Source: an uncultured Dehalococcoidales bacterium
GTDB taxonomy: Bacteria; Chloroflexota; Dehalococcoidia; Dehalococcoidales; CAZFRL01
Direction: 5' to 3'
Length of the DNA stretch: 51,293 bases
NCBI GenBank assembly: GCA_964521325.1
Contig: CAZFRL010000004.1
Coordinates: 1-51,293 of the forward strand
Position numbers and translations under genes: made by a program. Position 1 is the stretch's first letter; each line of letters starts with the position of its first letter. Shown in pieces: positions 40,858 to 47,944 of this stretch. The notes beneath the pieces are model-generated. The model saw nothing but the letters and a program-made list of their open reading frames with translations. It was not told the DNA's origin and did not search any database.

Positions 40858-41080
40858 GTATTTGGTGATGGTGTAGATTGATTTCGAAGCGGGCTCCCTG
40901 TACACTTTCACTTTCGGACTTCTAAACTATTTCTGACCCTGATGTTGAGTTGAGGCTTGATATGGCAGAGGTTACAATGAATAGAGACGGGGCAGAAGTT
41001 TGAATCCTGGTGGAGGGAGCCATTTTGCTTTTTCCAAATCTGACAGATGTAAAATCTGGCGGAACTTTTATAAAGGTGAG

Positions 41081-42202
41081 ATGGCATTGAAGTTTGTCCG
41101 AGCGGGAGAAACATTGGAACTGCAGCCAAATTGTCACACGACAGCGATGGGCATTATGCCCCACACTGATGTGGGGCAGGCTCTGAAGCTTACCCTTAGT
41201 GTAGACATACCTTTCTGGCCTCAATTGCCTAATATTAGCTTCTATGAAGACATGTATGTCCAGACATCACAGAACTTCCCGGGGATAGTTATTGACCTTA
41301 GTGGTGAAAAAATCAGCTTCAATACGGCAAAATTTGAAAGGGAGCTAGGTCATTATTCCCGGAAGATGGCTGAGCCGGAAACCTTCGCCTTAAGCCGTAG
41401 ATATTCGGCGGTTTATCATAGGTTCCTAGCTGAAGACCTGCAGGACTATCCTGCCATTCGGGGGCAGGTAACCGGGCCGGTAAGCTTCGGCTTCAGAGTA
41501 ACTGATGAAGAGTCAAAACCCATTATCTATAACGACGGGGTCAGGTCTCTACTCTTTGATTTCATCCAACGGAAAGTCAACACCCAGTACCGACAACTCA
41601 GGGGGAAGAACCAAAGTGCCTTTGTCTGGCTTGATGAGCCCGGGCTCGGATGGGTTTTCAGCGGTCTCTCCGGTTACAACGATGTTCAGGCTAAACAAGA
41701 GTATCACAGCTTCCTGGCTGGACTTGAGGGACCCATGGCACTGCACCTCTGTGCCAATGTCAACTTGCCGTACCTTCTCGAGTTGGGTGTTAAGCTTCTA
41801 TCCTTTGATGCCTATCAGATTGAACTCATGCCCAAAGGGTATGCCAATACTGTTGCTGACTTCCTCAGCAGTGGCGGCATTATCTCATGGGGCATCGTAC
41901 CCACTGACTCAGAAAGCCTCAGCAAGGAAACTCCGGAGACATTAGCCAGATTGCTTCTGGGTTACTGGGACGTAGTATCTCTGAACACTGGTTTATCAGT
42001 TAAGGGGATTGCTGAGCAAGCCTTAATTGCGCCGGCGAGATGCTGTCTCAAAAATGTAGGGCGAGTTGGTGCCAGCGAGGATACAACTGCCGACGAAACC
42101 AGGGGAGACCCTAACTTCACGGTCGAGGAACGGTTAGTTGAAAGGGCATTTGCTTATCTGAAGACACTTTCTGAAATCCTCAAGAATAAATTTGACTTGT
42201 GA
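41081..42202 (+). CDS. Core (single-barrel) cobalamin-independent-type methionine synthase-like protein
   Basis: FWPQLP, GQVTGP, WLDEP, Zn ligands LHLC and APARCC; only one MetE barrel; ATG 41081 with AAGGTG SD. Confidence 0.7.
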   Translation: MALKFVRAGETLELQPNCHTTAMGIMPHTDVGQALKLTLSVDIPFWPQLPNISFYEDMYVQTSQNFPGIVIDLSGEKISFNTAKFERELGHYSRKMAEPETFALSRRYSAVYHRFLAEDLQDYPAIRGQVTGPVSFGFRVTDEESKPIIYNDGVRSLLFDFIQRKVNTQYRQLRGKNQSAFVWLDEPGLGWVFSGLSGYNDVQAKQEYHSFLAGLEGPMALHLCANVNLPYLLELGVKLLSFDAYQIELMPKGYANTVADFLSSGGIISWGIVPTDSESLSKETPETLARLLLGYWDVVSLNTGLSVKGIAEQALIAPARCCLKNVGRVGASEDTTADETRGDPNFTVEERLVERAFAYLKTLSEILKNKFDL

Positions 42203-43233: not shown

Positions 43234-44100
43234 ATGCAGCTTAAGGGGAGTAAAACTGAGGAAAATTTGCGGAAGGCTTTTGCTGGAGAATTACAAGCCC
43301 AGGCTAGTTACATTTATTTTGCTTCTGCTGCCGAGGAAGCAGGCTTTGAAGAAATAGCTGATGTGTTTTTGGCAACGGCTGAAAACGAGGCTGAGCATGC
43401 GAAGCATGAGTTTATGTTCCTTGGTGGTGCTGAGGATGTCAGGGCAAATTTAGCTTTGGCGGTTGAGCGTGAGTATAAGGAGGCAACCAAGTTTTACCCA
43501 GAGGCGGCGGAGGTAGCTAGAGAGGAGGGCTTTGCTGAGATTGCCGACTTCTTTCACCGGATGAGCAAGGTTGAGGAGAAGCATAACGGAAACTTTCGCA
43601 AATTACTTGAGACATTGGACAAGGGCAAAACTTTTCAAGGAAGGACGGTGGGGTATTCGGCAGTTGAGATGGCACAGGTGATGTTACCTGATCAGGCTAA
43701 TCCGGCGGGATTTGTCCATGGTGGGGAGTTGATGAAGTTGATGGATAATGCTGCCGGTGTAGTAGCTGCCCGCCATAGCCGGGCTAATATCGTGACCGGA
43801 AGGGTAGAGAATATCATTTTCCATAACCCGGTGCGTGTCGGTAGCCTGGTCATCATCCGTGGCAAGATTACTTTCACTAGTCGCTCGACTATGGAGGTTC
43901 AAATAGAAGTCGAGACTGAAGACCTCCGTGATGGGAGGAAGCTTCATGCATTAACTGCCTATTTTATTATGGTAGCCCTGGATGCTGAGGGGAAATCGGC
44001 GGAGGTGCCATCACTTCTACTTAGTACTGAGGAAGAGGGAAGACTTTTTAATGAAGCCCAGGCAAGATATAAAGCCCGAAAAGTGAAATCTGAAAAGTGA
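43234..44100 (+). CDS. Rubrerythrin di-iron domain fused to hotdog acyl-CoA thioesterase
   Basis: LKGSKTEENLRKAFAGE, ENEAEH, EEKH, then MLPDQANPAGFVHGGELMKLMDNAA and FHNPVRVG in one frame. Confidence 0.85.
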   Translation: MQLKGSKTEENLRKAFAGELQAQASYIYFASAAEEAGFEEIADVFLATAENEAEHAKHEFMFLGGAEDVRANLALAVEREYKEATKFYPEAAEVAREEGFAEIADFFHRMSKVEEKHNGNFRKLLETLDKGKTFQGRTVGYSAVEMAQVMLPDQANPAGFVHGGELMKLMDNAAGVVAARHSRANIVTGRVENIIFHNPVRVGSLVIIRGKITFTSRSTMEVQIEVETEDLRDGRKLHALTAYFIMVALDAEGKSAEVPSLLLSTEEEGRLFNEAQARYKARKVKSEK

Positions 44101-44673: not shown

Positions 44674-45858
44674 ATGAGAAAGGTTTACCTAGACAATGTT
44701 GCCACCACTCCAATATTGCCCGAAGTGATGGAGGCTATGCTGCCTTATCTCAAGGAGATTTATGGCAATCCTCAATCCCTGCACGGTTGGGGAGATGAAG
44801 CCAGGGAAGCGATAGAAGGTGCCCGGGAGAAAGTGGCAGACCTCATTGGTGCTCAGGCAGAGGAGATTATCTTTACCTCCAGCGGCACTGAGTCGAACAA
44901 CTCCGCTATTAAAGGACTGGCGATGGCCCAGCAATCTAAGGGTAAGCATATCGTCGTTTCCGCTATCGAGCACTTCTCGGTATTGCACTCAGCCAGAACC
45001 CTGGAGAAGTGGGGCTTCGAGATGACCCAGGTTCCGGTGGACAAGCATGGAATGGTGAATCCCGATGAAGTAGCCCGAAGCCTCAGGAAGGACACGGTTC
45101 TTGTCTCCATCATGCACGCCAACGGTGAGGTGGGTACTATCCAGCCCATCGCTGAGATAGCAAAGGTAGCGAAGGAAGCTGGGGCTATCTTCCACACTGA
45201 TGCTGTAGCTACCGTGGGCACAATACCTGTCGATGTCAAAGAACTTGGGGGCGATGCACTGAGCTTGGCTGCTAATCAGTTCTATGGACCTAAGGGAGTT
45301 GGTGCTCTCTGGCTCAAGAAGGGGACGCGCATCATCCCCTTCCTTGACGGTGGTGTACAGGAGGGAGGGCGGAGGGCTGGAACCGAGAATGTGCCTGCAA
45401 TCGTAGGCTTAGGGAAGGCTGCCGAACTGGCCAAAGCAGAGATGGGGTCAAGGGTGAACCGCCTCTCAGCCCTGCGCGACAGGTTGATCAAAGGCTTACC
45501 GTCTCGAATCGAGCACGTGGTCCTCACCGGACATCCCAGCCAGCGCCTCCCCGGAAATGCCAGCTTCTGTATCAAGTTCATCGAAGGAGAGGCAATGCTA
45601 ATGCTTCTCTCTAGCCAGGGTGTCGCCGTCTCCAGCGGCTCGGCTTGCACCTCCAGGGCGCTGAAGGCATCTCATGTCCTCACTGCTATGGGGATTCCCC
45701 CTGAGATAGCGCAGGGCTCACTGCTCTTCAGCTTTGGTCTGGGGAATACTGAGGAGGATGTTGACTATGTATTAGAAGCGCTACCGCCCATTGTGGACAG
45801 GCTGCGGCAGATGTCACCACTATATGCCAAATTCCTGAAAGGAAAGGGAGGGAAATGA
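44674..45858 (+). CDS. iscS: IscS/NifS-type cysteine desulfurase homolog lacking PLP lysine
   Basis: [46 protein letters not shown]; the HK position reads NQ. Confidence 0.92.
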
Positions 45859-45859
45859 G

Positions 45860-46276
45860 ATGCCTATTTACAACGAGAAAGTAATGGAGCACTTCATGAA
45901 TCCCCGCAATGTGGGTGAGATAGAGGATGCTGACGGTGTCGGCGAGGTGGGTAACCCCGTTTGCGGGGACATGATGACCTTTTACATCAAGGTGGACGAT
46001 AACCGTCTCAGTGATGTGAAGTTTAAGACCTTCGGCTGCGGGGCGGCCATTGCTGTCTCCAGTATTGTGAGTGAGATGGCTATGGGGAAGACACTGGAGG
46101 AGGTGAGAAAGATTACCCCGGCATTGGTAGCTGAGGAGCTGGAGGGGCTGCCCAAGAACAAGTATCACTGCTCCAACCTCGGTGCTCAAGCCTTGAATAA
46201 GGCTATCGATGACTACCTAAAGAGGCAGGGCAAAGTAGCGAAAAGGAAAAAAGGGGGGAAAGATGAGAAGAAATGA
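45860..46276 (+). CDS. iscU: Fe-S scaffold IscU/NifU-N
   Basis: NPRNVG, GNPVCGD, FGCGAAIA, LPKNKYHCS. Confidence 0.93.
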   Translation: MPIYNEKVMEHFMNPRNVGEIEDADGVGEVGNPVCGDMMTFYIKVDDNRLSDVKFKTFGCGAAIAVSSIVSEMAMGKTLEEVRKITPALVAEELEGLPKNKYHCSNLGAQALNKAIDDYLKRQGKVAKRKKGGKDEKK

Positions 46277-46460
46277 AGAACCAAGGGAAAAGGAGGGGAA
46301 GTGTTTTTGTCCCTACTGTGAAGAGGAGCTGGTCATGGCTGCTCTACCTTACTGCCAGCCCTGTGGCGTGACCCTGCGCTACTGCATTAATTGCCAGATA
46401 GCAGTGGCAAGGGAGGCGGAGGTCTGTCCCCAGTGCGGGGGCAAGCTAGAATGGAAGTAA
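46263..46460 (+). CDS. Double zinc-ribbon small protein
   Basis: Four CxxC pairs (CPYC, CQPC, CINC, CPQC) in 65 aa; overlaps the iscU stop. Confidence 0.75.
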   Translation: MRRNEEPREKEGKCFCPYCEEELVMAALPYCQPCGVTLRYCINCQIAVAREAEVCPQCGGKLEWK

Positions 46461-46471
46461 GGAGGGCGGCT

Positions 46472-46948
46472 ATGCCAGAAAAGGTTACTCTGGTGGTATT
46501 CAGCGGGGAGATGGACAAGGCCCTGGCCGCCTTCAACATAGCTATTGGTGCTGCTGCCATGGGGATGGAGGTGAGCATGTTTTTTACCTTCTGGGGGCTA
46601 AATATCATCAGGAGGAATGAGGGCTCAACCAAAAGTCGGGGGATGATGAGGAAGATGCTCAATTTTATGAACCGAGGTGGCTCCAAGAGATTACCCCTAT
46701 CCCGATTCCACATGCTCGGCCTGGGTAAGTGGATGATGGGAAAGTTAATGCAGGATGCCAAGTTTCCCTCTCTCGATGAGTTAATAGCTACTGCCCGGGA
46801 GTCGGGGGTTAAATTTATAGCCTGCACTACCTCTATGGCGATTATGGGAATCTCCAAGGAGGCTTTCATCCCTGAGGTGGATACCTTTGCTGGGGTGGCT
46901 ACCTATCTAGCTGAGGCTAGAGAGGGGAAGGTCAATCTGTTTGTTTAA
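46472..46948 (+). CDS. DsrE/DsrF/DrsH-like sulfur carrier
   Basis: VTLVVFSGEMDKA, FFTFWGL, IACTTSMAIMG; AAGGAGG SD before ATG 46472. Confidence 0.87.
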   Translation: MPEKVTLVVFSGEMDKALAAFNIAIGAAAMGMEVSMFFTFWGLNIIRRNEGSTKSRGMMRKMLNFMNRGGSKRLPLSRFHMLGLGKWMMGKLMQDAKFPSLDELIATARESGVKFIACTTSMAIMGISKEAFIPEVDTFAGVATYLAEAREGKVNLFV

Positions 46949-46960
46949 GGAGATAGAGCT

Positions 46961-47191
46961 ATGAAGGCGGATGCCACTCTTGACTGCATCGGATTATATT
47001 GTCCCATGCCCATTGCCCACACCGCCAAAAAACTCGAGGAGCTGGAAGTAGGGCAGGTATTGGAGGTCCTGGCTGATGACGAGGGTATTAAGGAGGACAT
47101 GCCTGCTTGGTGCCGTACCACGGGAAATGAGCTGTTAGGTATTGAGGAAGAAGGTGGAGGATACAAGGTTTATATCAGGAAATCCAAGTAG
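46961..47191 (+). CDS. tusA: Sulfurtransferase TusA family
   Basis: LDCIGLYCPMP, GQVLEVLADD, DMPAWC. Confidence 0.9.
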   Translation: MKADATLDCIGLYCPMPIAHTAKKLEELEVGQVLEVLADDEGIKEDMPAWCRTTGNELLGIEEEGGGYKVYIRKSK

Positions 47192-47257: not shown

Positions 47258-47944
47258 ATGAATCTTAAGGCTCTATATAAGTTAGGTTACGGTCTGTATG
47301 TAGTAAGCTCAAGGAAGGGAGACAAACTCAATGGGCAAATCGCCAACACCGTGTTTCAAGTTACCTCTGAGCCGCCGACTATTGCCGTAAGCATCAACGA
47401 AGATAACCTAACCCATGAGTTTATTAAAGAAAGCGGAGTGTTTGCTGCTTCTGTCTTGTCTCAGGATACTCCCCTCTCTTTTATCGGTCACTTTGGTTTC
47501 AAGTCAGGTAGAGATATAGATAAACTGGAGGGCATTAACTATAAAATAGGTGAAACGCAAGCCCCTGTAGTTACTGATAATACCTTGGCTTATCTGGAAG
47601 CCAGGGTGGTTCAGGCAGTAGATGTGGGAACACATACTATTTTTGTAGGCGAGCTTGTGGGAGCCGATGTTCTTAGAGAAGGCGAGCCTATGACCTATGC
47701 CTATTATCATCAGGTCAAGCGGGGCACCACTCCCAAGACTGCCCCGGTTTATGTTGAGGAGGAAAAGATGGAAGCTATTAAAGCACCGAAGTACAGGTGC
47801 ACCGTTTGTGGTTATGTCTATGACCCAGAACTGGGAGACCCGGACGGTGGCATCGCCCCAGGGACACCATTTGAAAAAATACCTGATGACTGGGTGTGTC
47901 CTGTCTGCGGGGCGGCTAAGAGTGAGTTTGAAAAGATAGAATAA
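47258..47944 (+). CDS. Flavin reductase-rubredoxin fusion (high-molecular-weight rubredoxin)
   Basis: [26 protein letters not shown], then CTVCGYVYD...DDWVCPVCG. Confidence 0.9.

Follow-up and report, generated by a model that had tools for sequence, protein, structure and literature searches.

How does a bacterium supply sulfur to its iron-sulfur (Fe-S) clusters when its only IscS-like protein has apparently lost the means to extract that sulfur from cysteine? The question is raised by a five-gene operon in the small genome of an uncultured Dehalococcoidales bacterium (1.36 Mb in 52 contigs, 91.6% complete; assembly GCA_964521325.1, here G000). The stretch analysed, referred to below as the window, comprises 51,293 nt of contig CAZFRL010000004.1, and its positions 44674-47191 carry five co-directional genes on the + strand. 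They code for an IscS homologue without the lysine that binds pyridoxal phosphate (PLP), here called IscS*, an IscU-type scaffold, a double zinc ribbon, a DsrE-type protein and TusA. As the genome shows no cysteine desulfurase, the host must do without one when it mobilises sulfur for its Fe-S clusters and for 2-thiouridine. The answer that we favour, and to which we give an even chance, is that the operon is a cysteine-desulfurase-independent form of minimal ISC (MIS) Fe-S assembly, with the carriers delivering sulfane sulfur. Among the observations behind this proposal is that TusA and the DsrE-type carrier are linked to lysine-less IscS in our samples, and that this holds in two clades.

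The features concerned are:

44674..45858, + strand: IscS*, 394 aa, class-V aminotransferase fold of the IscS/NifS type without the PLP lysine (PF00266, 275.7 bits; TIGR03402 NifS, 530.8 bits)
45860..46276, + strand: IscU-type Fe-S scaffold, 138 aa (PF01592, 160 bits; TIGR03419)
46263..46460, + strand: double zinc ribbon, 65 aa, four CxxC pairs (PF12773, marginal with 28.2 bits against a cut-off of 27.3)
46472..46948, + strand: DsrE-type sulfur carrier, 158 aa, with Cys118 (PF13686, DrsE_2, 181.6 bits)
46961..47191, + strand: TusA-family sulfur carrier, 76 aa, motif DCIGLYCPMP (PF01206, 94.3 bits against a cut-off of 28.6)
47258..47944, + strand: flavin reductase-rubredoxin fusion, 228 aa, directly 3' of tusA, a possible associate

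The original prediction had described five tightly packed genes, correctly on every point that we checked: the intergenic spacings are, in order, +1, -14 (the overlap of iscU and the ribbon gene), +11 and +12 nt, and a Shine-Dalgarno-like purine run precedes each gene. The longest frame of the DsrE-type gene opens at a TTG at 46391; the start favoured by its homologues is the ATG at 46472. A scan for promoters and terminators around the operon gave counts equal to the shuffle expectation and did not delimit its boundaries. Comparison with close relatives gave a ratio of non-synonymous to synonymous substitution rates (dN/dS) of 0.08 for iscS* and of 0.04-0.16 for its four partners, which shows purifying selection on all five genes; since some pairs approach saturation of dS, the values are rough. 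The possibility that IscS* is a pseudogene was considered and is ruled out by its dN/dS and by the spread of its clade over several phyla.

The altered active site of IscS*

The closest solved homologue of IscS* is a lysine-bearing IscS (9wep, E 1.3e-144). When the 9wep segment SFSAHKMYGPKG is aligned to IscS*, the His-Lys position is occupied by Asn201-Gln202, so that the hallmark of class I cysteine desulfurases, the Schiff-base lysine (E. coli Lys206 in the SxHK motif), is absent. The loss extends beyond the lysine, as the equivalents of E. coli Asn155, Gln183, Ser203, His205 and Arg354 are Gly151, Ala179, Ala199, Asn201 and Leu351. We compared these positions in an alignment of the 150 closest representatives of IscS* (clustered at 50% identity), of which 25 are without the lysine and 125 bear it. 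In the 125 lysine-bearing proteins the residue of E. coli is found in 124 cases for Asn155, 119 for Gln183, 115 for His205 and 124 for Arg354. In the 25 lysine-less ones the equivalents of these four are mostly gone together, and those of Cys328 and Asp180 (E. coli numbering) are kept in every case. Across the lysine-less genes the lysine position is filled by Q, A, M, P, T, S, E, N or D, a variety which argues that the site of IscS* has been relaxed rather than re-tooled.

What IscS* retains is the loop cysteine (Cys325 in SSGSACTS), together with His100, Asp176 and a PF00266 match over its full length; its TIGR03402 score lies just above the cut-off of 530.75 bits, with the fold and the loop cysteine of that family both in place. 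Judged by its residues, IscS* is predicted to be incapable of acting as a cysteine desulfurase, its PLP/cysteine site having been lost. An enzymatic function of another kind might be imagined, in which PLP is bound without a Schiff-base lysine or a PLP-independent reaction is performed on some other substrate, TusA and the DsrE-type protein being ordinary acceptors. The conserved His104 and Asp180 equivalents, the cysteine loop and the strong purifying selection would fit such a protein. We nevertheless consider it very unlikely, as five PLP- or substrate-contacting residues have been lost together and are replaced by many different ones, the pattern of a relaxed site.

A relative from Archaea points in the same direction. 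The lysine-less IscS of Archaeoglobus fulgidus, in which Lys is replaced by Asp, matches IscS* at E 2.9e-120. According to PMC7585200 (citing Marinoni 2012, Pagnier 2014 and Yamanaka 2013) and PMC13066941, desulfurase activity is absent from the A. fulgidus protein, which donates a Cys ligand to the [2Fe-2S] cluster of IscU. This, too, speaks against a remaining enzymatic activity of IscS*.

Sulfur carriers beside lysine-less IscS genes

The original prediction proposed that co-occurrence of lysine-less IscS with DsrE and TusA be examined, and that linkage independent of the lysine state would count against a sulfur relay. We counted carrier genes within 1.5 kb of iscS (the flank length of the sampled loci), detecting them by profiles built from the operon's own relatives. 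In Chloroflexota (300 genomes, 30 best IscS matches), TusA adjoins 11 of 12 lysine-less genes, the window's own being excluded, while none of the 17 lysine-bearing IscS genes has TusA or DsrE beside it, though 6 of these have IscU. No conclusion relies on genomes G038, G131, G168, G203 and G264, which are flagged as unpublished. In Desulfobacterota (90 genomes), a carrier lies near 11/22 lysine-less versus 0/8 lysine-bearing genes. A metagenome scan seeded with a representative of the Lys-to-Asp type (P0154) returned 8 Lys-to-Asp and 12 lysine-bearing loci; tusA is immediately upstream of iscS* in all 6 of the former that include upstream DNA, and in none of the 12 latter. A recount by profile hidden Markov models over 157 IscS genes found a carrier within this distance of 0/36 lysine-bearing genes; for lysine-less genes the figures are 66/79 in addition to the 11/12 of Chloroflexota and the 11/22 of Desulfobacterota. 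The expected co-occurrence is therefore seen in all three samples, which are bacterial, and carriers were never found beside a sampled lysine-bearing IscS.

In an IQ-TREE tree of 111 IscS proteins, calculated with the trait columns masked, the lysine-less proteins form two clades, a large one that holds the window's protein (n=69, support 99) and the Lys-to-Asp clade (n=5, support 100). Lysine-bearing clades with support of 92-97 lie between them, which implies that the lysine state has changed only twice in the sample. Both losses go with carriers.

The conservation of the gene order was followed in a scan with one genome per species, which yielded 80 related loci; that all 80 are lysine-less reflects a bias of the scan, as one of its search patterns was ANQFYGPK. 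They come from Dehalococcoidia and also from records of Smithella, Elusimicrobia, Actinomycetota, Planctomycetia, Omnitrophota, Eubacteriales and Nitrospirae. Among the 67 loci with at least 1.7 kb of downstream DNA, TusA is present in 62, IscU in 60, a free-standing zinc ribbon in 52 and the PF13686 type of DsrE in 49, frequencies which argue that the five-gene arrangement is not due to chance. The arrangement is not rigid. Ten loci have the order iscS*-iscU-ribbon-tusA-dsrE, and the DsrE protein there is a different one, of 122 aa and family PF02635. The tusA gene may be upstream or downstream of iscS*. A desulfobacterial locus (L163:1238-3516) has the order tusA, iscS* (with Pro-Ala for His-Lys), an Rrf2/IscR-like gene (so labelled from the appearance of its sequence) and iscU. 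Since the order varies, an Rrf2 gene has been inserted, DsrE families have been swapped and IscU is sometimes absent, we interpret the linkage as maintained by selection rather than as a frozen operon.

This bears on the view that the linkage is an inherited accident, in which one ancestral operon has been passed on with carriers that are functionally unrelated to the lysine state. There are only two independent lysine losses, and the monophyly of the large clade means that most of the counts are from kin, as such a view would require. It is nonetheless extremely unlikely in our judgement, because the linkage has survived changes of order, a gene insertion, replacement of the DsrE family and fusion of IscU with the ribbon, and because the second clade shows it again, with tusA at the opposite flank of iscS*.

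In some loci both kinds of IscS are found close together: a canonical lysine-bearing IscS is encoded 1-3 kb from the iscS* operon in L012:1003-3692, L022:3007-4218 and L061:1896-3569, and also in genomes G109, G118 and G260. A CoA-binding-domain-like gene comes next after the lysine-bearing IscS in L012 and L061 (with Pfam confirmation in L012 only), and in L012 an AIR-synthase-related gene (SelD/ThiL/HypE-like) also lies between, with no IscU.

A candidate sulfur relay and its alternatives

The partners of IscS* retain the residues that a sulfur relay would employ. IscU carries Cys35, Asp37, Cys60 and Cys104, its three cysteines being kept in 69/69 homologues, and among solved structures it is closest to the IscU which is paired with the lysine-less IscS in A. 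fulgidus (4eb5_C, E 3.6e-55). The carrier cysteines claimed in the original prediction, in the IAC motif of DsrE and the CPMP motif of TusA, are indeed intact. Cys118 (FIAC) is the single invariant cysteine of the DsrE-type protein and is kept in 42/42 homologues. The closest solved relatives of that protein are 3pnx (E 1.2e-28) and 2qs7; with 65.2 bits against a cut-off of 210 it falls outside the DsrE2 equivalog NF047629 and belongs to the wider PF13686 family. TusA matches its family profile and has the CPxP cysteine, Cys14, which is kept in 67/67 homologues.

A second cysteine of TusA, Cys9, lies five residues before the CPxP cysteine (DCxGLxCPxP) and is kept in 65/67 homologues. E. coli TusA has no cysteine at the matching position.

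The zinc ribbon was regarded in the original prediction as an uncharacterised component. This remains so in that it has no match to a solved fold: its AlphaFold2 model is of moderate confidence (pLDDT 68.6), a Foldseek search with it gave no PDB match at E <= 0.001 but weak RING and zinc-ribbon look-alikes only, and a protein-atlas search returned only unnamed 'double zinc ribbon' clusters. Its association can now be specified, as it is an appendage of IscU. The eight cysteines of its CxxC pairs (CPYC, CQPC, CINC and CPQCG) are kept in 59-60 of 60 homologues. It is encoded by a separate gene in the window, where its start overlaps the 3' end of iscU by 14 nt, and in three other loci (L072, L074 and L140) the entire double ribbon forms the C-terminal tail of IscU. 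In about 18 more loci the cysteine tail of IscU is shorter and mostly holds a single ribbon (CxCP[YFV]C...). All ribbon-tailed IscU proteins are in lysine-less loci, and no IscU adjoining a lysine-bearing IscS in the sampled loci has such a tail. As the fusion with IscU, seen in other lineages, is confined to lysine-less loci, we interpret the ribbon as an IscU module specific to lysine-less systems.

No alternative desulfurase was found in the remainder of the genome. Its PF00266 matches are IscS* and an aminotransferase of about 100 bits beside phosphoglycerate dehydrogenase. No IscS/NifS/SufS-like gene other than the lysine-less one was found in this genome (91.6% complete) or in two near-complete relatives, G212 (97%) and G252 (100%), whose PF00266 matches are of the same two kinds. 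The only recognisable sulfur carriers lie in the operon, its TusA and DsrE-type genes being the sole members of their families found in the genome, and the sole PF02635 match is likewise the operon's own gene. A YeeE-type transporter was not found in the genome. MnmA is present, while the 91.6%-complete genome has no DsrC/TusE (PF04358) match and no TusBCD-like gene, so that a relay from TusA to MnmA of the E. coli type is incomplete here.

We suggest the following scheme. IscS* would no longer make persulfide from cysteine but would dock IscU and, via Cys325, act as a persulfide shuttle, as the fourth cluster ligand as in A. fulgidus, or as both. Sulfur would be passed by trans-persulfidation from Cys118 of the DsrE-type protein to Cys14 of TusA, then to Cys325 of IscS* and on to IscU, the step from TusA to IscS* being the reverse of the IscS-to-TusA step of E. 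coli. The carriers could be loaded from sulfide-derived polysulfide or from thiosulfate, possibly by a four-domain rhodanese encoded elsewhere in the genome. Electrons for the reduction of S0 to sulfide might be supplied by the neighbouring flavin reductase-rubredoxin, a candidate donor, or, provided that it binds iron, by the ribbon module. Direction of flow, primary sulfur source and electron donor are thus what we infer.

The four domains of this 464-aa rhodanese, a possible candidate for the loader, are the only rhodanese matches of the genome. Its gene (contig C12, L133:2632-5071, - strand) adjoins that of a CysK/CysM-like cysteine synthase, which scores just below the cut-off of TIGR01136 with 322 bits.

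Several points weigh against the proposed relay. Transfers from TusA to DsrE and from DsrE to TusA are both known, and in E. coli the flow is from IscS to TusA (PMC2854127, PMC11302665). The window's TusA lacks Arg27 and Arg31 (alignment by eye), the residues by which E. coli TusA bridges to IscS. Residues of IscS helix alpha2 do not separate the lysine-less from the lysine-bearing class: the Asp52 equivalent is acidic in both, and the equivalents of Trp45 and Glu49 vary in both. Of the lysine-less IscS-IscU pairs of Desulfobacterota, 11/22 have no carrier within 1.5 kb, so carriers are not obligatory neighbours. In some lineages (the Lys-to-Asp clade and Planctomycetia loci) TusA-IscS* pairs occur without an adjacent IscU, hence Fe-S assembly may not be the only task of the pair. 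Clusters could also be built from free sulfide by the products of two further genes of the genome, sufC and a short SufBD-like gene. Finally, the association with the lysine state is descriptive, as two independent contrasts (sign test p 0.5-1) carry no statistical weight. The relay reading of the original prediction is thus supported in part, in that carrier linkage tracks the lysine state, its support being limited by the two phylogenetic contrasts and by the carrier-free half of the desulfobacterial pairs.

The SufBD-like gene, on contig C33 (L082:786-3692), codes for 318 aa, scores 95.8 bits against the SmsB model cut-off of 650, and lies between sufC and a 399-aa gene without an NCBIfam match.

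Some of these points would suit the main rival reading, in which the carriers are outlets: IscS* and IscU would build clusters directly from free sulfide, a mode proposed for methanogens that have no desulfurase, and Cys325 would pass sulfur to TusA and the DsrE-type protein for tRNA 2-thiolation by MnmA, for molybdenum cofactor or for thiamine. The direction would be that of E. coli (PMC2854127, PMC11302665), MnmA is present despite the lack of a cysteine desulfurase, TusA-IscS* pairs without IscU would be explained, and the literature credits MIS and SMS systems with an ability to use sulfide (PMC13066941). However, the known TusA-to-MnmA relay lacks its DsrC/TusE and TusBCD-like components here, and such a reading leaves unexplained both how a site-dead IscS* acquires a persulfide and why carriers avoid the lysine-bearing IscS, which would be the better donor. 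We regard it as rather unlikely, and retain delivery of sulfur by the carriers as the preferred interpretation.

In its most general form, that interpretation would describe lysine-less IscS proteins as persulfide hubs loaded by TusA and DsrE-type carriers rather than by catalysis of their own, in a widespread, ancient and cysteine-independent route to Fe-S clusters (perhaps also to thiolated tRNA) in strict anaerobes of both domains, with iron or electrons supplied in bacteria by an IscU-attached ribbon of eight cysteines. We put this forward tentatively, considering its chances to be somewhat short of even.

Known systems and the surroundings of the operon

The nearest parallel is the IscS2-IscU pair of A. 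fulgidus (PDB 4EB5, 4EB7, 4HVK; 4R5F), where likewise the lysine is lost, the loop Cys is kept and the adjacent IscU has three Cys and an Asp, a combination that, as far as the sequence tells, recurs in the window. There are also differences. The substitution is Lys to Asp in A. fulgidus but Lys to Gln in the window, whose protein belongs to a different, mostly bacterial lysine-less clade. The published reading of the archaeal system is that of a non-catalytic IscS supplying a cluster ligand (PMC7585200, PMC13066941). The papers that we found on the A. fulgidus system do not discuss a zinc ribbon, a DsrE-type protein or TusA.

With the MIS system (MisS-MisU; the isc1 cluster of Methanosarcina acetivorans) the operon shares the two-gene IscS-IscU core and an anaerobic host that also has a SufC/SufBD-like pair. 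The layout is the same, as iscS* and iscU are 1 nt apart and no HscAB, IscA or Fdx was found in the window region inspected. However, MisS is defined as a cysteine desulfurase, which IscS*, judging from its residues, would not be, and the accessory genes of this operon, for the ribbon, the DsrE-type protein and TusA, are outside the published definition of MIS (PMC13066941). We place the core with the lysine-less IscS-IscU pairs of the A. fulgidus type, within the MIS class. The SMS system (SmsCB) of methanogens likewise assembles Fe-S clusters without any cysteine desulfurase (PMC7585200, PMC13066941); it differs in having a SufBC-like scaffold and has no known dedicated sulfur carrier.

The carriers, too, have well-described relatives. 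IscS-TusA and the Tus relay of E. coli involve the same protein families, and in the complex (PDB 3LVJ) the loop cysteine of IscS, Cys328, and the CPxP cysteine of TusA, Cys19, are juxtaposed (PMC2854127). In E. coli, however, IscS is an active donor and tusA is not beside iscS, whereas TusBCD, TusE and DsrC were not found in the present genome and the proposed flow is reversed. In the DsrE3/DsrE2-TusA cascades (Metallosphaera cuprina; sHdr, rDsr) a trimer-type carrier of the DsrE family adjoins TusA, each with a single active Cys, and transfers from DsrE3 to TusA and between TusA and DsrE3 have been demonstrated (PMC4175335, PMC11094781). Those cascades feed dissimilatory sulfur oxidation (sHdr, DsrAB), for which the window has no such genes.

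Our literature search found no paper that links a lysine-less IscS with TusA or DsrE, nor one that describes carriers and a ribbon in such an operon. New here are the bacterial gene order, the link between ribbon and IscU, and the finding that three genomes have the lysine-less protein as their sole IscS/NifS/SufS-like gene product. Reviews up to 2026 list the sulfur and electron donors of the MIS and SMS systems as unknown (PMC13066941). The operon names candidate donors for desulfurase-free Fe-S assembly, namely the DsrE-type protein, TusA and the ribbon module on IscU, and so bears on sulfur supply without a cysteine desulfurase and on the role of the 'dead' IscS of Archaeoglobus and Methanosarcina. 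Because Dehalococcoidia are rich in Fe-S enzymes, the route by which their clusters are supplied is also of practical interest. A few small soluble proteins would suffice to put the hypothesis to the test.

The operon is surrounded by genes for rubrerythrins, desulfoferrodoxin, a peroxiredoxin and the flavin reductase-rubredoxin, and such neighbours recur in about 28 of the 80 related loci; the flavin reductase-rubredoxin is directly 3' of tusA in 13 of them, and rubrerythrin genes are upstream in about 15. This setting would suit a protective or regulatory role, in which the carriers keep reactive sulfane sulfur in check, by buffering or detoxification, or TusA tunes assembly by competition with IscU for IscS*; they would then belong to an island for oxygen stress and Fe-S repair rather than to a supply route. 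TusA and IscU do compete for IscS in E. coli (PMC11302665), and a detoxification of reactive sulfur species has been suggested for DsrE4 proteins (PMC11094781). The stress-gene surroundings are, however, limited to close relatives, whereas the link between IscS* and TusA spans phyla and two clades, and the carriers are the only TusA and DsrE genes of the genome; we therefore consider a protective role improbable.

Upstream of the operon, a 400-aa frame at 41000-42202 of the window matches neither Pfam nor NCBIfam models at the thresholds applied. In the frame at 43234-44100 rubrerythrin (PF02915) and 4HBT thioesterase (PF03061) domains are fused; the same fusion, with 65-73% identity, is also encoded close to the operon in several of the related loci.

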